Assembly: GCA_900547765.1 (NCBI GenBank)
Contig: URIA01000002.1
Coordinates: forward strand, 2,620 to 66,619
DNA from: an uncultured Collinsella sp.
GTDB taxonomy: Bacteria; Actinomycetota; Coriobacteriia; Coriobacteriales; Coriobacteriaceae
Reading direction: 5' to 3'
DNA length: 64,000 bases
In this document: positions 2,905-37,215 of the stretch, one piece after another
How positions within the stretch are numbered: position 1 is the stretch's first letter
Layout of the letters: every line of letters starts with the position of its first letter
Notes under the pieces: generated by a model
The model's database searches: none
The model's input: only the letters and a program-made list of their open reading frames with translations
Told to the model about the DNA's origin: nothing
Program-made: the position numbers and the translations under genes

Positions 2905-2948
2905 TCCCCGTCCCGGGTAGCTCATTTGGGACGGGGCTTTTTTGACTG
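2905..2948 (+). terminator. Rho-independent terminator hairpin (CCCCGTCCC…GGGACGGGG followed by CTTTTTTG)
   Basis: 9-bp perfect stem with a 13-nt loop, then a T-run. Part of an array of four alternating GGGACGGGG/CCCCGTCCC elements (see findings). Confidence 0.6.
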
Positions 2949-3019
2949 GTATGATTGGTGCGACCATTCGAACCAGCTAAAAGAGCCCCGTCCCAATTTA
3001 ACTACCGAGAGGATCTGCC

Positions 3020-4288: not shown

Positions 4289-4296
4289 CGCATCGC

Positions 4297-4343
4297 CCCA
4301 AACCACCACAAAGGTGCCTGTCCCCTTTGCGGTGGTTTGGGGC
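4297..4343. repeat. REP-like hairpin repeat, copy a (inverted orientation, extended stem, one stem mismatch)
   Basis: ccccaaACCACCACAAAGGtgcctgtccccTTTGCGGTGGTTtgggg. The loop is the reverse complement of the GGGGACAGGCACC loop of copies b-d. Confidence 0.8.
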
Positions 4344-8565: not shown

Positions 8566-9408
8566 CTACGCGATGGTTGCGCTGTAGGAGGCGACGTCCT
8601 CGTAGGAATCGGTCAGGTAGGCGTCGATGCCGATGGTCGTATTGACCAGGTCGTCAAGGCTGTCAAGCTCGCCGCTCGAGAACGTGAATTCCTCGGTGGC
8701 GCTGGTGCCGGGCATCAGGTGAGCCGAGAACCAGGGTTCCTTCATAGTGCCGTTGACGTTGGTCTTGCCGGAAGGAGCGTAGAAGGTCAGGTCCTTGTCG
8801 CTCTTGTTGGTGATGTTGACGACAAAACCGATGTCGCCCCACTCGTCCTTGAACTTCTCGGTGATGGTGATGGTGCACAGGTCGTCATCGGCGACGGTGA
8901 CGGCGGGGGAGATTTCGACACTCTGGACGTCGTCGTCTTCGACGGCCTCATCGACCTCTTCTTCCTTCTCGGCCGCCTCGCGATCCTTCTTCACCGTGCC
9001 GGACAGATCCTTGTCGGACTTGGTGAAGATAAGCTTGTCGCCTTCCACCTCAAGGACGAGCTTGTCGTCCTTGAGCTTCAGGTCGTGCGACTCATCTTCG
9101 GCGGTGATCGTTACGGTGGTGGCGTCCTTGGCTTCCCATTTCAGGTCGGCGACCTCAAGGAACATATCGAGGACGCCTGTGCCGTCCTCGTCGAGGATCA
9201 GGACGCAGTTGAGGCCCCACTCCTTGAGCATATCCATGTACTCATCGGTGAGCTCTTCGCCATCCAAGGTTCCACCCGAGTACTGCCAGCTGCCGACGAA
9301 GTTGGCCTTGGGGTCCTTGCCGCCGCCGCTGCAGCCCGTCAGGGCAAAGGCGAGCGCCAGGACGCATGTCAGAAATGCGAGTACGGACTTTTTGAACGTT
9401 GTCTTCAT
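8566..9408 (-). CDS. Lipoprotein (hypothetical)
   Basis: ATG at 9408 preceded by AAAGGAGG. Signal peptide with lipobox LTGCSGG; acidic linker. The upstream 80 aa of the track ORF have no RBS. Confidence 0.7.
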   Translation of the reverse strand: MKTTFKKSVLAFLTCVLALAFALTGCSGGGKDPKANFVGSWQYSGGTLDGEELTDEYMDMLKEWGLNCVLILDEDGTGVLDMFLEVADLKWEAKDATTVTITAEDESHDLKLKDDKLVLEVEGDKLIFTKSDKDLSGTVKKDREAAEKEEEVDEAVEDDDVQSVEISPAVTVADDDLCTITITEKFKDEWGDIGFVVNITNKSDKDLTFYAPSGKTNVNGTMKEPWFSAHLMPGTSATEEFTFSSGELDSLDDLVNTTIGIDAYLTDSYEDVASYSATIA

Positions 9409-9488
9409 GGTGTCCTCCTTTATCGAACGAAACCCATAGAAGCAAATGCGGGGGTGGCGGAACCCCCGCCAATTACCAGATAGAGGGG

Positions 9489-10730
9489 TTAGGGCCGGGG
9501 CGTTCCGCAGTTGCTGCAGAACTTGCCGCCGTTTTCGCTGCCGCAGTTGGGGCAGAACCACTTTGCCGGTGCCGGGGCGGGTGCGGGACTGCCGCACTCG
9601 GAGCAGAACTTGCCGGTGTTGGTGGCGCCGCAGCTGCAAGTCCACGTGCCGGCCGCAGGTGCGGCGGCGGGAGCCGGTGCGGGGGCGGGAGCCGGAGCCG
9701 GCTGCGGGGCGGCCTGCTGCTGTGCCTGGCCGGCGGCGAACAGCTGGCTGGCGTTCATGCCGCCCATGCCACCTGCCATGCCCATGCCCATAAAGCCTGC
9801 CATCGCGCCGTTGGGGTTGGCGGCTGCCGCGCGCATCGCATCGCTCTGGGCGCTGGCGATGTTGGCTGCCGCCATGGTGGGATCGCGCATGACCGCGGCT
9901 TTCTGCAGGTCCTTGATCATCTGCTCGTCTTCTTGCGAGGCGGCGATGGAGTTGACGCCAAAGCTTACGATCTCAACGCCGCGCAGGTCACGCCAGTCGG
10001 CAGAGAGGACCTCGTTGAGCGCGCGGGCGAGCTCGGTGGTGTGGCCGGGGATGGCGCTGTAGCGGATGCCCATCTCCGAGATCTTGGCAAAGGCGGGCTG
10101 CAGGGCGGTGAGCAGCTCGGACTTAAGCTGGCTGTCGATCTTGTCGCGCGTGTAGCTATCGGTCACGTTGCCGCATACGTTGGTGTAGAACAGCAGCGGG
10201 TTGGTGATGCGGTACGAATACTCGCCGTTGCAGCGCACGGAGATGTCGACGTCCAGGCCAATGTTGTTGTCGACCACGCGGAAGGGCACGGGCGAGGCGG
10301 TGCCGTACTTATTGCCGATAATCTCCTTGGTGTTAATGAAGTAGACGCGCTGGTCCTTGCCCGCGTCGCCGCCGAAGGTAAAGCGGCTGCCGATATTGGC
10401 GAAGGTCTCCTTGATGGAGTCGCCCAGGTTGCCGCTAAAGACGCTCGGCTCGCTGCCGGTATCGAAGACGAACTCGCCGGGCTCCAGTGCGACTTCGATG
10501 ATCTTGCCGTTTTGCACCACGAGCATGCCCTGGCCGTCGTTGACGGCGATGACGGAGCCGTTGGAGATGACGTTGTCCTCGCCGCGCGTGTTGGAGCTGC
10601 GGCCACCGGTACGTTTGCTGCCCTTGCAGGCCAAGACGTCAGCAGGCATCGATTCGCAGTAGATATATTCCTTCCACTGGTCGGCCATGACGCCGCCGGC
10701 AGCTCCCAATCCAGCTTTCAAGAGTCCCAT
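9489..10730 (-). CDS. SPFH/band-7 domain protein with C-terminal zinc ribbons (YdjI / COG4260-like)
   Basis: Architecture and motifs resemble B. subtilis YdjI (…VYFINTKEI…). Gly/Met-rich segment, PAPAPA linker, then two CxxC…CxxC zinc ribbons at the C-terminus. RBS AAAGGAAG. Confidence 0.75.
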   Translation of the reverse strand: MGLLKAGLGAAGGVMADQWKEYIYCESMPADVLACKGSKRTGGRSSNTRGEDNVISNGSVIAVNDGQGMLVVQNGKIIEVALEPGEFVFDTGSEPSVFSGNLGDSIKETFANIGSRFTFGGDAGKDQRVYFINTKEIIGNKYGTASPVPFRVVDNNIGLDVDISVRCNGEYSYRITNPLLFYTNVCGNVTDSYTRDKIDSQLKSELLTALQPAFAKISEMGIRYSAIPGHTTELARALNEVLSADWRDLRGVEIVSFGVNSIAASQEDEQMIKDLQKAAVMRDPTMAAANIASAQSDAMRAAAANPNGAMAGFMGMGMAGGMGGMNASQLFAAGQAQQQAAPQPAPAPAPAPAPAAAPAAGTWTCSCGATNTGKFCSECGSPAPAPAPAKWFCPNCGSENGGKFCSNCGTPRP

Positions 10731-10778
10731 GGTGATCTTCCTTTCTCGTCAGAGGCCGGGTGGTATTGGTTGGATTGC

Positions 10779-12101
10779 TTAGTCGTCCTTGTCGTCTTTC
10801 ATGACAACGGTGGTCTCGGTGTGGCTGAAGGTGTCGTGCTTCTCGACCAGGTCGAGCTCGCCGCAGTACTCGTCGGCGTGGGTGGCCTCGTTGGCCGTTT
10901 TGAGCTGGCCTACCAGCAGCACGTCTCCGATGATTACGATGATCAGCGGCGCGACGATGTTGATGAGGATGCCCTCGATATCAAAGGTGAGGTAATCCGG
11001 ATCGAAGGCGTATTCGCCCATAAAGAGAATCTGGGAGAGGACAAATCCGATCACAAAGAACAGCAGCGAGGCGATAATGAGCTTGGGCTTGGAGCAGGGG
11101 AGCTCGCCGACCATACGGCCGGTTTGGCCGTTCATGGCAAACAGGTAGCTCTTGCCGTTCCACGAGGTCGAGAGCATCCAGACGGGGAACAAGGCGTAGT
11201 CGCTGTCTTCCCAGGTGTAGTCGAGCTGCTTGCTCTCGACCGAGGCATCGTCGTACTCATCGATAACGGTCTCGCGCAGGGCCGAGATCGTGCTTTCTTC
11301 CATACGGCGCTCGGCACGGGCCTTGCAAGTTTCGCAGTCCTCATCGTAACGGTTGGCGATGTAGCCGGGCATGTAGGCGACCGAGAACGGGCGCAGCGCG
11401 TCGTAGTCAAACGGTTCGATGGCGTCCATGTGGCCGTCGGGCATCTTGGACGATCCGTCGACGGGCACGCGCTCAAACGAGATATTGCCCTTACGGTAGG
11501 CATCGTAGTGGTCGGTGGTCGTGACGGTGCGGTCGGATTCCTCGGTCACGGTCTCGTTGGTTGCGTCAAAGTGCACTTCGCCGTCCACGCGGGCGCCGTA
11601 GAGCCAAAACGGCACGTAGACGCCTTGGACTTCGTCGATGTGGTTGCCGGTGACAAAGCTCTTGGGCAGCAGGATCTTGCCCTTGTAGTGCTCCTTGAGC
11701 GCGGCCAAGACATCGTCGCGTCCGAGTTTAAACGGAATCACCAGGTCGGGCGAGAAGTCGCCAGAGAGCTGGCCGGGCGCCACGGCGGAGTTGCCGCAGT
11801 ACGGGCAGGTGGAGACGGCGACGGTGCCGTCCGAGATCAGCTCGGCGCCACACGACGAGCAGATATAGCCGGCGTTTTGGGCCAGTTCCTGCACCGCATC
11901 GTCGGATGCGGGCTTGGATGTTGCGGCCGCCGCATCGGCTTTGGCATCTGCCTTGTCCTGGCGCTCGCGATAGAGAGCCTCGACCTCTTCGACTTCAAAG
12001 CGCGAGTCGCAGTAGTCACAGACGAGCTTTTGCTCGGCGCTGGCAAAATGCAGCGGGCCGCCACACGCGGGGCACTGATAGTTAACGCTTTCGAAGGCCA
12101 T
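10779..12101 (-). CDS. Zinc-ribbon membrane protein (YdjG/YdjH-like partner of the SPFH protein)
   Basis: N-terminal CPACGG…CDYC and CSSCG…CPYCG ribbons; C-terminal two TM helices. RBS GGAAAGGA. Directly upstream of the SPFH gene. Confidence 0.65.
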   Translation of the reverse strand: MAFESVNYQCPACGGPLHFASAEQKLVCDYCDSRFEVEEVEALYRERQDKADAKADAAAATSKPASDDAVQELAQNAGYICSSCGAELISDGTVAVSTCPYCGNSAVAPGQLSGDFSPDLVIPFKLGRDDVLAALKEHYKGKILLPKSFVTGNHIDEVQGVYVPFWLYGARVDGEVHFDATNETVTEESDRTVTTTDHYDAYRKGNISFERVPVDGSSKMPDGHMDAIEPFDYDALRPFSVAYMPGYIANRYDEDCETCKARAERRMEESTISALRETVIDEYDDASVESKQLDYTWEDSDYALFPVWMLSTSWNGKSYLFAMNGQTGRMVGELPCSKPKLIIASLLFFVIGFVLSQILFMGEYAFDPDYLTFDIEGILINIVAPLIIVIIGDVLLVGQLKTANEATHADEYCGELDLVEKHDTFSHTETTVVMKDDKDD

Positions 12102-12125
12102 GATCGGTCCTTTCCGTGCCGAGGG

Positions 12126-12863
12126 CTATGCGCCGATGGCGCCGCCGCAGTATTCGCAGCGCCCACTGGCATCGGGAATGGTGGTGGCGCCGCAGAAGGG
12201 GCAGGTCACCGCGGTCTTGGGGGCCTTGGCGGCAACGACGCTATCGCGCGTCTCCTGACGCAGCTGCACCAGCGCGTCGCGGACTTCGGTTGCCTGACGC
12301 TTGGCCTCGCGGTACTCGATGGATCCGCGCTGCTCGATGGTGGAGTCGTTCACGCGCAGGTCGATCTCGGTAAAGTACGGCGTGTTGACGTGGATGGTCA
12401 GATTGAAGTCGTAATCCAGGTCGTAGCGCGGCGGGTCATAACTCTCACGCTCGCCGTCCTTGGTCTCGCGATAGATCTCGGTGCGGTGCTCGTCGATATC
12501 CATATCGCAACCGAGCACCTGCGAGAACTCGATGATGTCGGGATTGGCGTCGCGCCAGCGGCTCTGCGAGGTGATGATCAGCAGGCCCGCGTCCTCATCG
12601 AGCATGATGTTGGTGCGCCCGGCCGAGAGTGTGCGCGTGGGGTTGAACGACGCCAAGCGCTCGGCATTGGCCTCGCGGTAGGCGAGCTGCTCGCGGATAT
12701 CGTCCGCGGTGCTGGAGCGATAGCCGTGAAAGTAGGGGGAGAGCTTGCCGGCGCACTCTTTGCACAGGTAGCCTTCATTGATTTTTGTCTTACCTAGAAG
12801 TCCCAGTTCGGTACCGCAAATCGCGCACTCTTTCTTCTCGAACATCTTGTCAAAGAAGCCCAT
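12126..12863 (-). CDS. Zinc-ribbon protein (DUF4428-like)
   Basis: N-terminal MGFFDK…CAICG…YLCKECAGKLSP; C-terminal CPFCG…CEYCGG. RBS GGGAGG. First gene of a three-gene operon with the SPFH protein. Confidence 0.6.
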   Translation of the reverse strand: MGFFDKMFEKKECAICGTELGLLGKTKINEGYLCKECAGKLSPYFHGYRSSTADDIREQLAYREANAERLASFNPTRTLSAGRTNIMLDEDAGLLIITSQSRWRDANPDIIEFSQVLGCDMDIDEHRTEIYRETKDGERESYDPPRYDLDYDFNLTIHVNTPYFTEIDLRVNDSTIEQRGSIEYREAKRQATEVRDALVQLRQETRDSVVAAKAPKTAVTCPFCGATTIPDASGRCEYCGGAIGA

Positions 12864-12982: not shown

Positions 12983-13017
12983 GACTAGTCGTTGGGGACG
13001 TTCTTAAACGACTAGTC
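12983..13017. repeat. Hairpin repeat with conserved loop GGGGACGTTCTTA, copy A (11-bp stem)
   Basis: GACTAGTCGTT-ggggacgttctta-AACGACTAGTC. Confidence 0.8.
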
Positions 13018-13035
13018 GCAGGGGACACTCTTCGG

Positions 13036-13066
13036 CCACTCATTGGGGACGTACTTAAATGAGTGG
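13036..13066. repeat. Hairpin repeat with conserved loop GGGGACGTACTTA, copy B (9-bp stem)
   Basis: CCACTCATT-ggggacgtactta-AATGAGTGG. Stem sequence differs from copy A by compensatory changes. Confidence 0.8.
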
Positions 13067-13250
13067 TAGTTGGAGACACTCCTGGCCGAGCTAGAGATCG
13101 CGCGCGCCCCTTCTGGGTCATGCGGCTCAAAATCGCGGCGTCATGCGGACGGCTGGGGTCGAATTTGCAACATTTCGAACTTGGCTTCGATATTGAGATT
13201 GGTTCTTTATTAAAATGGTGTTCCGGACAACAAAGCGGGTGGGGGTTACC

Positions 13251-14795
13251 ATGAGGGACCTGGGAGACACAACCGCATATTTGCGCCGGGGCATGCGGGA
13301 GATTCTGTGCCTAGCGCTGTTCTTCTTCACGTTTTTGGCGTGCGAGTATTTCTTTGATGCGCGCATGGCCGAGTTCGTGCCATCGAGTGAGGTCGTCATC
13401 TACGAGAGCATCGTTGTCGGCGCGAGCGTGATTGGCTTTTTCGTGCGCCCATTTCTGTACTATCGCCGTCCCCAGACGATCGATGCGACGAGCGATATTA
13501 CGGGCGTGCTGTTGGTATCGGCGTTGCTGCTGATGATTATGGCAGTGCGGTTTGAGGTAGTAATTGCCGGCGGCCTGGTGGCGTGCTGCGCCCTGGGCTA
13601 TTGCGGATCGACCGCCCATGCCAATCTTGCGCGGCGTTTTGCGCAGACGCCCTGCCTGGCGCGCGCCGTGGCGGTTTCCTATGCTGCGGGCATTTTGGTG
13701 CAGGTGCTCAACCATATGGTGATGCCTGCGGGCATTCCCCAGCAGTCTGTTCTCATTGCCTGTGCGATCGCGCTGGTGGGGCTGCTTCACGGTGCCCGCC
13801 GCGCTAAATTGCGTGATGAGCCTGCGCCCGAGTTCGAGGTCGGGATTGCCGAGCTATCGGTCGATGCGTCGGAGCGTGGCGCCAGGTGGCACGATGACCC
13901 CGAGGCAAAGGCGGCCTTTCAGGGCGCCGTGGTGCGTCTGACGGTGGCGACCGCTTGCCTCACCGGCGTGTTCGCGGCCCTCAATGCCGGCCTTACGACC
14001 TCGCATGCCGCTGGCGCTATCGATCTGGGCGACTGGCCGCGCTTGCTGCTGGTTGTGAGCGCCCTTGCCGCCGGCGTCCTGTATGACCTGCGTGGGCGTT
14101 CGTATATGAATATCATCATGACGTGCGCCGCCATGCTGTCCACGCTCTCGTTCTTTGTGCTTATCACCGATGGCAACGGTGGCAACACGCTTGCCGCCAC
14201 GATTATCTTTTACCTTGGCACGGGCTTTTTCGTGGTGTTCTTCACCGCGAAGTTCGCCGCGATTTCGACGTATGCCCGCTGGGCGTATCTGTGGCCGTGC
14301 ATGGGCCGTGTTATCAACAACGTTTGCTCGATACTCGTGACGGCTCCGGCGGTGGCGATTATCTCGAGTCAAAACGTGCTGGCGGCAGTGAGCGTCGTGC
14401 TCGTGCTGTTTGTCGGCATCGCGATTTCGCTGTTAGGGCAGTTTAGACAAGACGGTGAGGGCGAGGCGACGCACGGCGGGCTGGCGCTTGCCACCGACGA
14501 TCTTGGCGTGAGCTGTGAGCCCGGCCAGGCCGACACGGTGCCCCTGGAGGCGCCGGAACTTTCGTTTGACGATCGGATCGATGGCTTCGTTGCCGCCTTT
14601 GGGCTCACCAAGCGCGAGCGCGATGTTCTGGAGGCGCTGGTCGTTTCGGACGACAGCGTGCAGGACGTGGCGGCGGCACTCTTCCTTTCGCGCTCCACGC
14701 TCTATCGCCACATCGCTTCGATCAACAAAAAGACCGGTGCCTCCTCGCGCGTAGCCCTCATCAACTTCTTCTGGTCCTGGACACCCCAAGACTAG
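13251..14795 (+). CDS. Membrane-embedded LuxR-type HTH transcriptional regulator
   Basis: About 10 predicted TM helices followed by a C-terminal LuxR HTH (LTKRERDVLEALV…STLYRHIASINKKTG). Start uncertain: ATG 13251 preferred over 13215. Confidence 0.6.
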   Translation: MRDLGDTTAYLRRGMREILCLALFFFTFLACEYFFDARMAEFVPSSEVVIYESIVVGASVIGFFVRPFLYYRRPQTIDATSDITGVLLVSALLLMIMAVRFEVVIAGGLVACCALGYCGSTAHANLARRFAQTPCLARAVAVSYAAGILVQVLNHMVMPAGIPQQSVLIACAIALVGLLHGARRAKLRDEPAPEFEVGIAELSVDASERGARWHDDPEAKAAFQGAVVRLTVATACLTGVFAALNAGLTTSHAAGAIDLGDWPRLLLVVSALAAGVLYDLRGRSYMNIIMTCAAMLSTLSFFVLITDGNGGNTLAATIIFYLGTGFFVVFFTAKFAAISTYARWAYLWPCMGRVINNVCSILVTAPAVAIISSQNVLAAVSVVLVLFVGIAISLLGQFRQDGEGEATHGGLALATDDLGVSCEPGQADTVPLEAPELSFDDRIDGFVAAFGLTKRERDVLEALVVSDDSVQDVAAALFLSRSTLYRHIASINKKTGASSRVALINFFWSWTPQD

Positions 14796-14798
14796 CTA

Positions 14799-14835
14799 AC
14801 CACCACAAAGGGGACAGGCACCTTTGTGGTGGTTT
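14799..14835. repeat. REP-like hairpin repeat, copy b
   Basis: AACCACCACAAAGG-ggacaggcac-CCTTTGTGGTGGTT followed by TTTTT. Likely also a terminator. Confidence 0.85.
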
Positions 14836-14940
14836 TTTACCTGCAAAAATATGAATATGAGACATTTGTCACCTGCCGTTTTGGTGCTCAAAGGCATATG
14901 AATGTGATGCTGAGCAGAGCAGAACGGAGGGGGTGCACCT

Positions 14941-17839: not shown

Positions 17840-18526
17840 ATGAAGAACGAGATGACGATGAGCCGTGCGACCTTTGTGGCAGGCGCAGGTACGGCGGCTT
17901 GTGCACTGGCTGGCTGCTCGGGCGGATTGGGCGGCGCGGACGGCGCCAAGGCGGCGAGCACGGCGGACGCCGCCTGCGTGGATGACAATGCCAACGTGAC
18001 GGTCTATGCCTCCATCAACCTGAGGGGTGCCGATCTGGTGCGCCTGCTCAAGCATCAAAACTATGAGTGGCAAGGCGAGAGCGTGGGCTATGGCGCCGTC
18101 GATGATGCGGGATTTTTCGCTTTTACCTTTTCTGAGGTCTCGGACGATGTGGACGAACTTGCAAATAGCGCGATACCGCTTTCGGAATCCGAATACGAGG
18201 AGCTTGAACCGGGTGGCGGAGACGATAGCGTGGCGATCTTGCTTTCGGTGGCAGGTTATACGACGGGCGATCGCGCGCTTGCCGGTGCAATCGGCGATGC
18301 GGCGATGGTGCAGGAGAAGTGCACGATTGACGATTCCACATATTGGCTGGTCAAGGCACTCGACGGCAGTCGCTATGTGATTTCGGCCTACGATACCGAA
18401 GACGATGGCGACAGCGCGCATGACATCTATATCTATAGTGAGTCTTTTATTCGCACCGGTTATCTGAGCGGCGGCGACAAAATCGATATCGACGAGCTCT
18501 GGAGTCGCCTGACCAACGCCTCGTAG
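17840..18526 (+). CDS. Lipoprotein (hypothetical), distant paralog of the preceding gene
   Basis: RBS GAGGGA; lipobox LAGCSGG. Confidence 0.6.
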   Translation: MKNEMTMSRATFVAGAGTAACALAGCSGGLGGADGAKAASTADAACVDDNANVTVYASINLRGADLVRLLKHQNYEWQGESVGYGAVDDAGFFAFTFSEVSDDVDELANSAIPLSESEYEELEPGGGDDSVAILLSVAGYTTGDRALAGAIGDAAMVQEKCTIDDSTYWLVKALDGSRYVISAYDTEDDGDSAHDIYIYSESFIRTGYLSGGDKIDIDELWSRLTNAS

Positions 18527-18534
18527 CGCACCAA

Positions 18535-18572
18535 AACCACCACAAAGGGGACAGGCACCTTTGTGGTGGTTT
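18535..18572. repeat. REP-like hairpin repeat, copy c
   Basis: Identical core to copy b, followed by TTTTT. Lies between the convergent lipoprotein and mgtA genes. Confidence 0.85.
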
Positions 18573-18608
18573 TTGCCCTTGGGCTGTCTACTGTGGCGGC
18601 TCACCGTG

Positions 18609-21389: not shown

Positions 21390-21600
21390 GTTGAGGGGAG
21401 TTAGCGTACGTGTCGTATTTGCTTCAAAAAACCTAGATGTCGCTCACGTCAAGCTCTTGAGCCCACAAAGGGTGCAGCGCGCCTTTGTGGTGGTTTTGGC
21501 GATCTGCCGGTGGCGTTTATGCGTGTGCGGAGTCCTCGCGGCGTGCCGAGGGCGACATGCAGGTTTTTCGACTAGGACTGCCTTCCATGGCACACCTCCT
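21390..21600 (-). promoter_or_regulatory. Long structured mgtA leader; possible M-box (Mg2+) riboswitch
   Basis: ~220-nt 5' UTR. Contains UUAGGAGGUG…AUGGAAGGCAG…CGAAAAACCUG segments resembling M-box conserved strands, a REP-variant hairpin and a U6 run. Confidence 0.3.
21462..21493. repeat. REP-like hairpin, variant copy e (different loop)
   Basis: CCCACAAAGG-gtgcagcgcg-CCTTTGTGGTGG inside the mgtA leader. Confidence 0.7.
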
Positions 21601-22498: not shown

Positions 22499-22743
22499 GT
22501 AGTTACGCGGGTTTACCAACCCGCGTAACGGCTCGACGCTGCGCGGGCCGCATTTGGACAATCTGACGTTCAACTTCAAGGGCGCGACCAGAAGGTCAGC
22601 GCCCTTTCGTTTCACGTCACCTTGCCTCAAATGCGACCCGCTCGCTGACTTATGCTCAACCTATGGCGTCATCTCGCCCCAAAAGGGCCTCCTTCGCTCT
22701 GGCGGGTTTTCGCTGTCGGTACCAAAGCATCGGCGTTGTCGAA

Positions 22744-22774
22744 GTAGTCATTGGGGACGTTCTTAAATGACTAC
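22744..22774. repeat. Hairpin repeat with conserved loop GGGGACGTTCTTA, copy C (9-bp stem)
   Basis: GTAGTCATT-ggggacgttctta-AATGACTAC. Third family member, 9.7 kb from copies A and B. Confidence 0.8.
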
Positions 22775-22779
22775 ATAGT

Positions 22780-22847
22780 ATGAGAGTGGATAATCTCCTG
22801 GTTTGAGCCTGCATCTAAGTTCAAAGTGGGAGATTATCCACTCTCAT
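22780..22847. repeat. Perfect 19-bp inverted repeat (ATGAGAGTGGATAATCTCC … GGAGATTATCCACTCTCAT) with 30-nt spacer
   Basis: Read directly; lower-GC sequence in the convergent pyrE/pdxT intergenic region. Confidence 0.8.
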
Positions 22848-24386: not shown

Positions 24387-24531
24387 GGTTGCTCCCTTGG
24401 TTGGCATGTGCATTGCTTGACGGAACATCCTATCGGGGAGCTGGGTATGGCAAAATACTCAGTTTTCGAGATAATAATAAGGTCAGCCTAATACCAGATT
24501 GAACAGCTCGATAAGGTCAGGTGGCAAACTC

Positions 24532-25971
24532 ATGCTTGACTACAATTTGGAAAAACGCGGCGAAGCATCGCTTTATGAGTATGTTTACCAGCAAATTCGA
24601 GATGATATTGTTGCTGGACGTATTGTGGCGGGGGAGCATCTTCCGTCTAAGCGCGCCTTTGCCAGTCATCTGGGAATCAGTGTCATTACCATCGAGAATG
24701 CATATAGCCAGTTACTTGCCGAGGGCTATATTTGCTCAATGCCGCGTCGTGGCTACTACGCTTGCAAGCTTCCGGATGCACCGGTTTTGCCTTTGGCTTC
24801 GCAGGGCATCGACCGAGATACCGTCTCTGTGGGCCTCAGCGCGCATGATGTCAACGGACAGGTCGAGCTGTTCGATGCACTTTCTCCTTCCGCTTTGGAG
24901 GCGGCGCGGCTTTGGCAAAGCGCACTACGGGCGACGCTGGCATCCGAAGATGAGCGCGAAATCTTTTCGCCCGCACCGGCGCAGGGCACCGCTCGGCTGC
25001 GACGCGCAATTGCTCACCATCTGCGTGGGACAAGGGGCATGAATGTCGACCCCAACAACATTGTTATCGGTGCAGGCGCCCAGCTGCTCGATACCATGTT
25101 GGTTCAGTTGCTTGGAGCCGACAAGGTGTATGCCGTTGAGGACCCGGGCTATTTGCGTCTGACGCGTATCTATCAGGCTATGGGCTGCCAAGTACGACAT
25201 ATCCCGTTGGATGATGAGGGCGTGGACTTGAGCACTCTGCAGAAAAGCGGGACCGATGTCCTTCACTTGATGCCGTCTCATCAGTATCCGACCGGCCTTG
25301 TGACGAGTATTGCGCGTCGCTATGCGCTACTGAGCTGGGCCGCCGAGCGACCAGGTCGGTATCTCATCGAAGATGACTTTGATTGTGAGTTTCGCCTTGC
25401 CGGCAAGCCGATTCCCGCGCTCGCGTCGATCGATGCCGCCCAGTCGGTTATCTACACCAACACGTTTTCGAAGAGCCTTTCATCGGCGTTGCGTTTGGCG
25501 TATATGGTGTTGCCCGATGAGCTAATGGAGCGGTTTAGGCGCAACCTTGGTTTCTACGCCTCGTCGGTGAGCTCTGTTGACCAGGTCGCTTTGGCGCGTT
25601 TGCTGGAATCGGGTGATTACGAGCGACATGTGAACCGCGTGCGCGTTCGTGCTCGCGAGGCGCGTGATGGCCTGACGTCGCTTGTGCGGAAAGCGTTTCC
25701 GGCAGGGGAGGTCTCGATCGAACATGCAGACGCGGGCCTTTACTGCACCGTGGTTGCGGAGCGCGGAGCGGGCGGAAGCTCTTTTGTGCGGGCCCTCACG
25801 CGCTCGAGTATCCCTTTTGTCGATATCAGTGACTGTTATTGGTGTGCCGATGGCGCATTTGTCCCTGAAAACTCAAGTCAAATTCTTGTTCAGTATGACG
25901 ATTTGAGTTCAAAAGCGCTAAATACCTTGGAATCGCAGCTAATGGGAGCACTCTGCAACCTAAGTGAGTAG
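24532..25971 (+). CDS. pdxR: MocR/GntR-family PLP-dependent transcriptional regulator (PdxR-like)
   Basis: N-terminal GntR HTH (LPSKRAFASHLGISVITIENAYSQL) plus aminotransferase-like domain. Divergent from pdxST. The last codons (…NLSE, TAG) are contributed by MITE copy 1. Confidence 0.8.
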   Translation: MLDYNLEKRGEASLYEYVYQQIRDDIVAGRIVAGEHLPSKRAFASHLGISVITIENAYSQLLAEGYICSMPRRGYYACKLPDAPVLPLASQGIDRDTVSVGLSAHDVNGQVELFDALSPSALEAARLWQSALRATLASEDEREIFSPAPAQGTARLRRAIAHHLRGTRGMNVDPNNIVIGAGAQLLDTMLVQLLGADKVYAVEDPGYLRLTRIYQAMGCQVRHIPLDDEGVDLSTLQKSGTDVLHLMPSHQYPTGLVTSIARRYALLSWAAERPGRYLIEDDFDCEFRLAGKPIPALASIDAAQSVIYTNTFSKSLSSALRLAYMVLPDELMERFRRNLGFYASSVSSVDQVALARLLESGDYERHVNRVRVRAREARDGLTSLVRKAFPAGEVSIEHADAGLYCTVVAERGAGGSSFVRALTRSSIPFVDISDCYWCADGAFVPENSSQILVQYDDLSSKALNTLESQLMGALCNLSE

Positions 25972-26081
25972 GCTTTTGGAACTTTGGCGACCAGGCAGTT
26001 TTGTAACAAGCTATCTACCTGCGGTTTTGAAAAGCAGGATGACCGGGCTGCTCGGGATGTTCAAAAAAGTCTACTCACTTG
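25960..26081. mobile_element. MITE-like element, copy 1 (~122 bp, 20-bp terminal inverted repeats CTAAGTGAGTAG(A/G)CTTTT…)
   Basis: Left end CTAAGTGAGTAGGCTTTTGG, right end CAAAAAAGTCTACTCACTTG; internal sequence homologous to copies 2 and 3. Confidence 0.8.
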
Positions 26082-26262
26082 TCGCGCAAAGCTTCTGCAT
26101 GAGAAAAAATGGGGTTTTCAACAGAACTTCGTCCAGCTCTCGGCAAGCTTTTGGCCAGTTGGGGAGGGCTGTTGAAAACTTGGCAGTCCGTTCGGCACCA
26201 TTTTTGGCGCGTTCGCGCCAATGCGTGACTGACTGGGTTGAAATTCGTGTTTTCCTGTGCCT

Positions 26263-27390
26263 ATGAAAGATCTACTTTGTGACATATCGGCTTTTAGGTA
26301 CTGGCGTTTGCCCCCTCAGGTCCGCGCTCTGTGTCCGCCGCTTCCACGACCGGAAGAAGGCCGGCAGCGATATGATCTCGCCCGCAACCCGACGGCTGCG
26401 GTCGCGCTCGGTTTTCCGTTGTATACATTGGTTCAGACAAGAAACAAACGGACTTGTCCTGCCAGCATTAGGCAGCGGCTGTTTCTTGGTGAGCTTCCCA
26501 GGGAATCCGTACTGGAAACGGAGCATGGGTTTTTGATTACGTCTCCTCTTCTGACGGTATTCATCATGTCGCGGCATCTGACGGATCTTCAGCTTCTTTT
26601 GGTATTGGCGGAGATGTGTGGCTTGTTTGCGGTGTGCGCTCTGCCTGCGGCACTTGGGGCGGAGCTTTCGCGTGCAATTGATTCGGGCGCGATCTCGACA
26701 ACGTTCGGTTGGGTGCGCTGCCCGTCCGAGGACGGCACCGCCTCAAATTTATGGCGTCGAGACGCTTTGGTTTTGGGCGGAGACCTTGACCGTTTTTGTT
26801 CAGATGTTTGCGGGATACGTTACGGCAATAGATTTAGGACGGTGTCGCAACTTGTTCCATTGGGTGCCGCGTCGCCTTTTGAGGTCGAGGCGTATTTGCT
26901 ACTTGCACTGCCGCGATCCCTGGGAGGCGTAGGCTTTTGCGACATAGAGCTTAATGTTGAAGTGATGCTAAGCACAAGTGCTCGAGCGATTGTGGGAAAG
27001 TCCCGTGTATATATCGACATACTTCTGTCTTCGCCGGACGGCAGGCGACAGGTGGCCATTGAATGTCAGGGAAAGGCCTCGCACGGACGCGCAGGGGATG
27101 GCTTGCGTGACGCTGACCGCATGACGGCCCTTCAGGCCATGGGCTACGATGTGCTTCTCCTGACACACAGACAGATATCGGATGAGGATAGATTCCGCGC
27201 GATCGTTAAGGCCGTATGCAGGATGCTCGATGCTGAATATCGTGATAAAAGCTCAGATGAGCAAAGGGCTGAGACATTACTCAGGTCTGAACTATTCGTT
27301 GACTGGACAAAATTGGGAGTAATCGACGGAAAGATGCCCGTTAGACACAAAATGGCTCGATCGTGGACGGCTGCGAATCTAAGTGAGTAG
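26263..27390 (+). CDS. Hypothetical protein with C-terminal restriction-endonuclease-fold (DUF559/Vsr-like) domain
   Basis: C-terminal …VAIECQGKASHGRAGDGLRDADRMTALQAMGYDVLLLTHRQI… resembles DUF559-type endonuclease domains. Noticeably lower GC than neighbors; bracketed by MITE copies 1 and 2; stop codon lies in the MITE terminal repeat. Confidence 0.5.
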   Translation: MKDLLCDISAFRYWRLPPQVRALCPPLPRPEEGRQRYDLARNPTAAVALGFPLYTLVQTRNKRTCPASIRQRLFLGELPRESVLETEHGFLITSPLLTVFIMSRHLTDLQLLLVLAEMCGLFAVCALPAALGAELSRAIDSGAISTTFGWVRCPSEDGTASNLWRRDALVLGGDLDRFCSDVCGIRYGNRFRTVSQLVPLGAASPFEVEAYLLLALPRSLGGVGFCDIELNVEVMLSTSARAIVGKSRVYIDILLSSPDGRRQVAIECQGKASHGRAGDGLRDADRMTALQAMGYDVLLLTHRQISDEDRFRAIVKAVCRMLDAEYRDKSSDEQRAETLLRSELFVDWTKLGVIDGKMPVRHKMARSWTAANLSE

Positions 27391-27501
27391 ACTTTTGGCA
27401 CTTTGGCGACTAGGTCGTTTTGCAACAAGGCATTTACCTGCGGCTTTATAAAGTGATATGGATGGTCTGCTCGGCAAGTTCCAAAAAGTCTACTCACTTA
27501 G
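27379..27501. mobile_element. MITE-like element, copy 2
   Basis: CTAAGTGAGTAGACTTTTGG … CCAAAAAGTCTACTCACTTAG; near-perfect 20-bp terminal inverted repeats. Confidence 0.85.
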
Positions 27502-31771: not shown

Positions 31772-32317
31772 ATGATGTGGTTTACCGCCGACCTACACCT
31801 GGGCGATACGAATATCTTGCACGACATGGACCGGCCGTTTGGCTCGGTCGAGGAGATGAACCGCAAGGTCATCGATGCCATCAATGAGTGCGTGGCTGTG
31901 GACGACCGCCTCTATATCTTGGGAGACTTTACCTATCGTTTGCCCCTGGCGGAGGCGGTGCGCCTGCGCGAGCGCATCGAATGCCAGAATGTGACGCTCA
32001 TCCGTGGCAACCATGACGGCGACTGGGAAGATCCCGACGTACCGCAGATTTGGGAAGACGTGCGCGATTACCTGGAGATTGCTCCCGGCTATGCCAAGGG
32101 CCATCGCCTGGTTTTGAGCCATTACCCCATGCTCAGCTGGAATGGCAAGGCGCGCGGCGCCATCATGCTGCACGGGCATATCCACAGCAGGGGAGACCGC
32201 ACCAACGCACGCAACCGCGATCGCGAGCGCCCTATCTTTCGCTACGATGTCGGTCTCGATGCCAACGAGTACAAGCCCGTAAGCCGTGATCAGATTCTTA
32301 GCTTCTTTGGGTTATAG
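31772..32317 (+). CDS. Metallophosphoesterase (calcineurin-like)
   Basis: Metal-binding motifs DLHLGD, GDF, GNHD, GHIH in canonical order; 181 aa. Confidence 0.75.
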   Translation: MMWFTADLHLGDTNILHDMDRPFGSVEEMNRKVIDAINECVAVDDRLYILGDFTYRLPLAEAVRLRERIECQNVTLIRGNHDGDWEDPDVPQIWEDVRDYLEIAPGYAKGHRLVLSHYPMLSWNGKARGAIMLHGHIHSRGDRTNARNRDRERPIFRYDVGLDANEYKPVSRDQILSFFGL

Positions 32318-32320
32318 AGC

Positions 32321-32367
32321 GCCAGAGCCACCACAAAGGGGACAGGCACCTTTGTGGTGGTTCTGGC
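32321..32367. repeat. REP-like hairpin repeat, copy d (extended stem)
   Basis: gccagaGCCACCACAAAGG-ggacaggcac-CCTTTGTGGTGGttctggc. Confidence 0.85.
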
Positions 32368-36971: not shown

Positions 36972-37092
36972 GTGGTTGCTTTCTCTCGCGTTTGTCCGCC
37001 AACTATTATGGCGTAGCGTCGCATCGATGCGTTCGCAGGCAAGAAAATGCAGGAAATGGGCGTTCTGCCCAGCCGTTTGGTGCAGTTGCCAG

Positions 37093-37215
37093 CTAAGTGA
37101 GTAGACTTTTTGCAATATCGCGAGCACATGGCTTTTGCGCAAGGGCTCTACCTGCGGTTTTAGTATTGGTTATGCGGGTTGTGCTTGGCTATTGCAAAAA
37201 AGTCTACTCACTTAG
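37093..37215. mobile_element. MITE-like element, copy 3
   Basis: CTAAGTGAGTAGACTTTTTGC … GCAAAAAAGTCTACTCACTTAG. Located between the helicase and trmB genes. Confidence 0.85.

Follow-up and report, generated by a model that had tools for sequence, protein, structure and literature searches.

Hairpins with a common 13-nt loop in Collinsella as probable copies of a REP/BIME-like interspersed repeat

Three hairpins with a near-identical 13-nt loop are found in a 64,000-nt stretch of DNA from an uncultured Collinsella sp. (contig URIA01000002.1; the whole stretch is referred to here as the window). They are best interpreted, with a probability of about 0.7, as copies of a Collinsella-specific, extragenic, palindromic interspersed repeat that resembles the REP and BIME sequences. 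The repeat displays several hallmarks of these families, i.e., a stem-loop palindrome, a location outside genes, many lineage-restricted copies and mosaic arrays; the GTAG foot is not displayed. The hairpins do not appear to be a regulatory RNA specific to the neighboring genes, and a dedicated role in regulating the adjacent LuxR-type gene or pyrE/pdxT is unlikely. A search of the literature for REP, MITE or similar repeats in Collinsella, or for the loop sequence, found none described, and the best reading is that, within the literature searched, the repeat was previously undescribed in this genus.

Hairpins and other repeats in the window

Hairpin A (12983-13019; GACTAGTCGTT / GGGGACGTTCTTA / AACGACTAGTC), hairpin B (13036-13066; CCACTCATT / GGGGACGTACTTA / AATGAGTGG) and hairpin C (22744-22774; GTAGTCATT / GGGGACGTTCTTA / AATGACTAC), all on the + strand, had been proposed in a sequence-only reading of the window, and the sequence reads as claimed. 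The loop 13-mer GGGGACGTWCTTA has three exact matches in the window, every one on the + strand. When up to two mismatches are allowed there are five matches, compared with 1.09 expected, and none of 100 shuffled sequences gave five. The hairpin regions also fold into much more stable structures than shuffled sequence (z = -5.3 and -7.8). Two extra motifs said to be interleaved with A and B, GGGGACACTC at 13021 and GGAGACACTC at 13072, are present as well and are in the register of the array described below; as bare 10-mers these motifs are not enriched in the window.

Hairpins A and B are part of a direct array of four units ('++++', 12983-13090, + strand), which is found in the divergent gap between a DUF4428 zinc-ribbon gene (12126-12863, - strand) and a LuxR-type gene (13215-14795, + strand). 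The four cores of the array are in register, with spacings of 27, 24 and 27 nt. The first unit, at 12983-13019, belongs to subfamily S1 and consists of the arm (GAC)TAGTCGTT, the core GGGGACGTTCTT and the arm AAACGACTA(GTC); the stem of hairpin A reaches 11 bp because the 8-bp palindrome GACTAGTC is present in both arms. It is followed by a variant unit (13013-13041) that begins with the TAGTC closing hairpin A and is without a hairpin of its own, its core GGGGACACTCTT (13021-13032) being 27 nt from the core of A. Unit B, at 13036-13066, is of subfamily S2 (arm C(C)ACTCATT, core GGGGACGTACTT, arm AAATGAGTG(G)), and the array ends with a degenerate unit (13064-13090) whose core, GGAGACACTCCT at 13072-13083, is 27 nt from the core of B. 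This terminal unit and the segment 13019-13035 are able to pair as an imperfect outer helix that encloses hairpin B. Both ACTAGT sites of the window are within hairpin A. In 304 kb of Collinsella DNA (the window plus loci L225-L229), CTAG is under-represented ∼5-fold and GGGGAC/GTCCCC ∼3-fold relative to base composition.

Unit C is a singlet of subfamily S1 in the convergent gap between pyrE and pdxT, and two other dispersed Collinsella repeat modules are found on either side of its hairpin. Directly after hairpin C is a 68-nt near-perfect palindrome (22780-22847; ATGAGAGTGGATAATCTCC...GGAGATTATCCACTCTCAT) that is itself dispersed in Collinsella; the loci collected contain 17-19 copies, often beside GGGGAC units. 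On the other side, 3′ of pyrE, is a palindromic module of ∼110 nt (∼22560-22740). The inner terminator hairpin of this module has a variable stem and a conserved loop, GACCAGAAGGTC, of which 29 copies are present in the loci. CGCTCGCTG and CCAAAACATCGGCG modules come after the ∼110-nt module, which recurs at non-orthologous loci in other species.

The gene context proposed for the hairpins agrees with Pfam assignments, which place a DUF4428 zinc-ribbon gene, an SPFH gene and a GerE/LuxR membrane regulator around A and B, and a phosphoribosyltransferase (pyrE) and SNO/PdxT around C. On the + strand, a 1132-aa open frame at 9399-12797 is a shadow of three genuine minus-strand genes (SPFH and zinc-ribbon proteins); long open reading frames in this 60% GC genome are no proof of genes. 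Divergent from pdxS/pdxT is a 490-aa open reading frame (24499-25971, + strand) that by eye resembles a MocR/GntR-type PLP-dependent regulator (PdxR-like) and was missed by the codon-usage gene caller.

No terminator-like site was detected at A, B or hairpin C in a terminator scan. With stems that are AT-rich close to a 13-nt loop and with no T-run, the hairpins do not have the makeup of intrinsic terminators. A second dispersed hairpin family (AAAACCACCACAAAG-GGGACAGGCAC-CTTTGTGGTGGTTTT) is found at 4290-4342 (- strand), 14787-14839, 18524-18576 and 32315-32367, with a partial copy at 21479-21501. Its copies are right at gene 3′ ends, its 13-nt loop likewise starts with GGGGAC, and it looks like a bidirectional intrinsic terminator; CCACCACAAAGG of this family occurs 26 times in 840 kb of Collinsella loci. 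Repeats of 124 nt with inverted ends (CTAAGTGAGTAGACTTTTTG) are present at 25957-26080, 27376-27499 and 37090-37213. Two of these directly flank a 377-aa open reading frame (26257-27390) in a stretch of lower GC content and together with it could form a small mobile cassette. An inverted repeat with 44-nt arms (GGTAGCTCATTTGGGACGGGGCTTTTTTGACTGG...) occupies an intergenic gap at 2916-3006.

Unit structure, distribution and turnover

The repeat unit is ∼27 nt and consists of an arm, TT, the core GGGGAC-NNN-CYT, WWW and a complementary arm. Neighboring units share arms, which gives rise to 14-bp palindromes at the junctions (AAYGACTAGTCRTT in S1, AAGTGCCGGCACTT in S3). A unit together with at least the start of the next one can therefore fold into a hairpin with an 8-bp stem and the core in a 13-nt loop, GGGGACGUUCUUA. 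Across 141 copies among the matches listed, stem positions 1-8 are paired in 55-98%. The cores vary (GTT, GTA, AGA, ACT or AGT, then CTT or CCT), and the stems fall into subfamilies, TAGTCRTT, CACTCATT and GGCACTT, each complementary within itself. The arms of S1, S2 and S3 thus differ from one another and are internally complementary; chimeric units also occur.

Units are found singly or in arrays. Among the matches listed there are 127 complete clusters, 33 of them single units, 25 '+-' doublets and 24 '++' pairs, with the remainder having up to seven units; 74% of the clusters contain 2-7 units. Spacing in these matches peaks at 27 nt for direct neighbors and 28 nt for convergent neighbors, and a convergent (inverted) doublet could fold as one 20-bp hairpin. 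A coding role was considered, as the 27-nt period leaves reading frames open, and was rejected by inspection, the arrays being short and present in both orientations.

The sequence-only reading had suggested a pattern search for further copies, and such a search shows a real hairpin family with many more copies. With the pattern TGGGGACGTNCTTAA and one genome per species, at least 119 genome loci were found, and those among the matches listed are nearly all from Collinsella or Coriobacteriaceae. Metagenomes yielded at least 120 loci, nearly all, among the matches listed, from Collinsella or the human gut. Two true units among the matches listed are in MAGs labeled as other taxa (L021 and L043), which we read as mis-binned contigs. 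The six non-Collinsella genome matches listed show no flanking complementarity, and none of 105 matches in viral contigs (IMG/VR) has a stem of 5 bp or more. It follows from these stemless matches that the loop alone arises by chance and that the combination of loop and stem is specific to Collinsella. A phage origin was also considered and set aside, as the IMG/VR matches are chance occurrences and BLAST against INPHARED gave no match. Many of the genome matches listed are situated at contig ends. Collinsella is a common genus of the human gut whose genomes are mostly fragmented MAGs, and the family helps to explain breaks in their assembly.

Copies are distributed unevenly within a genome. 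A 0.9-Mb record of Collinsella aerofaciens has units at ∼19 places, with none in its first 200 kb, where housekeeping operons are tightly packed, and a single strict core, i.e., a very low density, in 240 kb of the record. These counts therefore correspond to tens of copies per genome. The record (NZ_OY725717.1 in PLSDB, strain TSDC17.2-1.1) is filed as 'plasmid 6'; it carries recA, ftsK, ribosomal protein genes and the pyr operon and is clearly chromosomal sequence.

Copy number and location bear on the proposal that the 12-mer GGGGACGTTCTT is a DNA uptake sequence, a self-recognition tag for natural transformation that often occurs in pairs as terminators, as in Neisseria. Inverted 12-mer pairs are found downstream of genes, and the annotation of C. 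aerofaciens includes comEC, dprA and a comEA-like helix-hairpin-helix gene. The uptake sequences of Neisseria and Haemophilus, however, are present in thousands of copies and also inside genes. The Collinsella repeat has tens of copies per genome, none within genes among the matches listed and none in the 200 kb of core genome, and the conserved entity is the 27-nt unit with its arms rather than a bare 10-12-mer. An uptake sequence is thus extremely improbable.

All 138 Collinsella copies among the matches listed are outside predicted genes, although ∼80% of the sampled DNA is genic; genes were predicted with a home-made codon-usage caller that failed to predict at least two low-GC genes of the window. 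Among these matches, convergent gaps are the most densely occupied (31 copies in 19 kb), whereas 68 kb of co-directional gaps contain 45 copies and 29 kb of divergent gaps contain 18. Of the 45 copies in co-directional gaps, 29 are in the sense and 16 in the antisense orientation. Orientation relative to GC skew (34 versus 40) displays no replication-strand bias, in a weak test, as skew estimates from 8 kb are noisy. The units represent an independent family, since 93 of 137 clusters among the matches listed have no other repeat modules nearby; dependence on neighboring modules was rejected on the same count.

Comparisons of orthologous loci reveal a rapid change of content. After the same conserved terminator region 3′ of pyrE, six Collinsella species have one, two or three units of differing types. 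At the A/B locus, the four-unit array is kept in L099, with a GTT to ATT change in hairpin A that results in an uncompensated A·C, and in L077 a different, S2-type array is at the same junction. A 56-nt doublet in L074 is missing at the orthologous sites of L104 and L061. The filled and empty sites of these three loci show no clean target-site duplication and the boundaries are ragged. In L019 there is an internal deletion between two GGGG runs. As array content varies between species at the same locus, neither the LuxR-type gene nor pyrE has a conserved cis-regulator in these units, and turnover of this kind is the behavior of a mobile or recombinogenic repeat.

Decay of stem and loop, and possible recognition of the hairpin

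The sequence-only reading had also proposed that the stems are fully compensatory and covary under an invariant loop, which would indicate a structure selected at the RNA or single-stranded DNA level, such as a loop recognized by a protein, a small-RNA module or a recombination site. Full compensation holds for A, B and C and fails for the family overall, where an A·C mismatch is found in about half of the unbiased copies. The sole highly polymorphic stem position of S1 is a CpG, with R on the left and Y on the right. Its combinations among the matches listed (A·C 36, A-T 30, G-C 17 and G·T 6) show no significant association (Fisher p = 0.14). An unbiased sample came from a metagenome scan seeded on the left arm plus GGGGAC, which leaves the 3′ half free of selection bias; 96 family members are listed. 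The left base is fixed as A in this sample, and the partner is T in 48 and C in 47, giving 48 paired and 48 mismatched copies. In the same 96 members, positions of the 3′ loop half show 74-98% identity (mean ∼91%) and those of the 3′ arm 88-96% (mean ∼90% outside the R/Y site). Loop and stem decay at an equal rate, with ∼90% identity per position. Given this equal decay and the uncompensated R/Y site, the individual copies behave as if they descended from a few palindromic masters and then decayed neutrally.

Covariation itself is weak. Among 72 distinct sequences, 84.3% of cells are paired versus 81.3% in column shuffles, and the covariation score is 0.185 versus 0.138; this modest excess comes mainly from one pair, the change from G-C to C-G that defines S2. 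When copies were searched for by stem, each arm type was found with a core of its own, GTT for S1 arms and GTA or AGA for S2 arms. The stem differences between A/C and B are differences between repeat subfamilies, with stem and loop inherited jointly as a few subfamilies and the stems not drifting freely under a fixed loop. What stands from the earlier proposal is that self-complementarity is kept in each subfamily although the arm sequences differ. This provides real evidence that palindromy matters for making or keeping the units, and self-complementary arms in at least three subfamilies argue for either a structural requirement or a palindromic master copy. Conservation of the loop does not exceed that of the stem.

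That the hairpins are not a double-stranded DNA operator, a further claim of the sequence-only reading, is in keeping with the differing self-complementary arms, which speak against an ordinary sequence-specific operator. A related proposal is that the arrays are double-stranded sites where the 14-bp junction palindromes at a 27-bp period, or the GGGGACNNNCYT cores, bind a dimeric or nucleoid-associated protein. Perfect junction palindromes, strictly quantized spacing, orientation that is independent of transcription and confinement to intergenic DNA are all consistent with such sites. The palindromes are wholly different between subfamilies whose arrays are otherwise alike, however, and one dimeric protein could not read all of them. 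In addition, the R/Y polymorphism leaves many junctions asymmetric (CA 11, TG 8, CG 7 and TA 4, with the R/Y states uncorrelated), copies decay as though unconstrained and copy number differs at orthologous promoters. This proposal is considered very unlikely.

A transcribed RNA module is another possibility, with the loop GGGGACGUWCUUA read by an RNA-binding protein or a base-pairing partner and the hairpin serving as a 3′-UTR stabilizer, a processing site or a small-RNA module. The stability of the hairpins, the complementarity maintained in three arm classes, the enrichment 3′ of genes in convergent gaps, the slight excess of sense copies in co-directional gaps, and the recurrence of the GGGGAC core across hairpin classes, the terminator-like class included, all agree with such a role. 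On the other hand, both orientations are common, inverted doublets make up 20% of clusters, and the complementary loop UAAGAACGUCCCC would be a different ligand. One stem position carries an uncompensated A·C in ∼40-50% of copies, which is also difficult to reconcile with a structured RNA, as are the equal decay of loop and stem and the differences in unit number and type at orthologous loci. On weak evidence, the single promoter-like site of the LuxR-type gene is located downstream of hairpins A and B. Rfam gave no match for the whole window at gathering thresholds, and for the A/B region only chance-level matches at E values up to 10; no curated covariance model thus corresponds to the repeat. 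The Collinsella-1 RNA motif (RF01700; Weinberg, 2010, PMC2864571) is likewise a candidate structured element in Collinsella and the human gut, and was rejected as a relative since its published alignment is unrelated in sequence and structure. The loop sequence is absent from the supplements searched of the human-microbiome structured-RNA survey. An RNA module is, on balance, unlikely, and knowledge of the repeat family keeps these hairpins from being annotated as riboswitch-like or small-RNA candidates.

The preferred interpretation, a REP/BIME-like repeat, implies that the units are non-autonomous DNA elements. New copies would arise from a few palindromic masters by way of a hairpin-recognizing enzyme, recombination or template switching; arrays would lengthen or shorten by slippage or unequal exchange at the 27-nt period; and single copies would afterwards drift neutrally. 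Any effect on the host would be generic, for instance as hairpins at RNA 3′ ends, as insulation or as sites for nucleoid proteins, and neither the LuxR-type gene nor pyrE would be under gene-specific control. Counting against this interpretation are the lack of a visible mobilizing enzyme, of a clean target-site duplication and of a replication-strand bias. A single-strand mechanism like that of IS200/IS605 might be expected to leave such a strand bias.

Searches for an enzyme were made in the DNA around the units. With IS608 TnpA and the Escherichia coli RAYT as queries, tblastn gave no match in 840 kb of unit-bearing genome loci, and clustering of proteins encoded near units yielded housekeeping orthologs only. 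The only genes bracketed by units among the matches listed are prfA and a HAD hydrolase gene. One IS200-type tnpA was detected in ∼1.1 Mb of metagenome and C. aerofaciens DNA (positions 3197-3697 of L298, gut metagenome contig OLNO01004446.1; tblastn 6e-20 to IS608 TnpA) and is not flanked by units. It is inserted within a palindromic module of the pyrE type. Neither of the hairpins at the ends of this IS200, CCACCCGCTACGCGGGTGG and AACCACCCTTTTTAAGGGTGGTT, is a GGGGAC unit, and the element was thus rejected as a source of a linked mobilizing enzyme.

These searches weigh on the proposal of a REPIN-RAYT type of system, in which inverted doublets would be the mobile form, moved as single-stranded hairpins by a single-copy domesticated Y1 (HUH) transposase. 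The '+-' doublet with its fixed 28-nt spacing is the commonest multi-unit form (25 of 127 clusters among the matches listed), the doublet of L074 is present or missing at orthologous sites, and IS200-family Y1 transposases do occur in Collinsella-like contigs. The one tnpA recovered, however, is an ordinary IS200 with differing end hairpins, the unit-bearing loci have no Y1/RAYT homolog, and no REPtron-like bracketing of a gene by units is found. A 5′ GTAG is not conserved at the base of the hairpin, only TAG, which is preceded by G, C, T or A in roughly 42, 40, 18 and 14 copies among the matches listed. The lack of replication-strand bias, a weak test, points the same way. A REPIN-RAYT system is therefore rated as quite unlikely.

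Pure selfish spread does not explain why the GGGGAC core is common to subfamilies with unrelated arms and to the separate terminator-like hairpin family. A core shared by unrelated stems hints at a reader that acts in trans. It can be put forward, as a tentative and rather doubtful proposal, that a putative trans-acting Collinsella factor recognizes GGGGAC-NNN-C in the 13-nt loops of four or more unrelated stems (TAGTCRTT, CACTCATT, GGCACTT and that of the terminator-like CCACCACAAAG family). Such a factor might be an HUH-type enzyme that nicks the loop and spreads the units; alternatively, it might be an RNA-binding protein at mRNA 3′ ends. If so, the repeat system would be defined by its loop, whereas classical REPs are defined by their stem, and a specific protein reading the GGGGAC loop would offer a tractable system for the spread of short repeats without a linked transposase.

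Comparison with known repeat systems

GTAG at the foot of the REP hairpin is the recognition element of RAYT proteins. REP/PU sequences and BIMEs have been described in Enterobacteria (Stern, 1984; Gilson; via PMC7771070 and PMC3337134). They share with the Collinsella repeat the form of ∼30-nt imperfect palindromes that are extragenic, confined to one lineage, single or in mosaic arrays, divided into subfamilies and enriched at gene 3′ ends. Classical REPs conserve the stem and the GTAG foot, BIMEs alternate in orientation and REP copies number in the hundreds per genome. The Collinsella units, by contrast, lack a conserved GTAG foot and are best conserved in an asymmetric loop core rather than in the stem; their arrays often consist of head-to-tail units with a fixed 27-nt spacing, with direct arrangements as frequent as inverted ones, and their copies number in the tens per genome. 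REPIN-RAYT systems (Bertels and Rainey, PMC3116915, PMC3337134) are similar in having inverted doublets, here foldable to a 20-bp stem, whose presence or absence varies between related genomes. They differ in that no cognate single-copy RAYT was found in the DNA searched and no units flank a transposase gene, and in that the Collinsella doublets are matched in frequency by singlets and direct arrays.

The units also resemble MITEs in being small, non-coding, palindromic and dispersed, with variable presence between genomes. However, no terminal inverted repeats matching a known IS are displayed, no target-site duplication is seen at the filled and empty sites examined, and a single unit is far smaller than typical MITEs. 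Conserved hairpin-loop sequences with stems that differ between lineages are a feature of HUH rolling-circle origins (geminivirus, circovirus and pMV158-type), which occur once per replicon beside a Rep gene. The Collinsella units are instead dispersed chromosomal repeats with no Rep/HUH gene nearby, and the likeness is one of functional analogy only.

BOX of Streptococcus pneumoniae and NIME/dRS3 of Neisseria are modular mosaics in which a short module is tandemly repeated a variable number of times, in intergenic DNA and mixed with other modules. The modular mosaic build is shared by the Collinsella repeat, although the sequences are unrelated and its module is much shorter (27 nt); targeting by phage integrase, described for dRS3, has no counterpart in the evidence from Collinsella. 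The host of the repeat is an actinobacterium of the Coriobacteriia, whereas the hosts of REP/BIME are Enterobacteria. None had been described from the Coriobacteriia in the literature searched, and REP/BIME-like mosaic repeats would be extended to this class by the Collinsella family.
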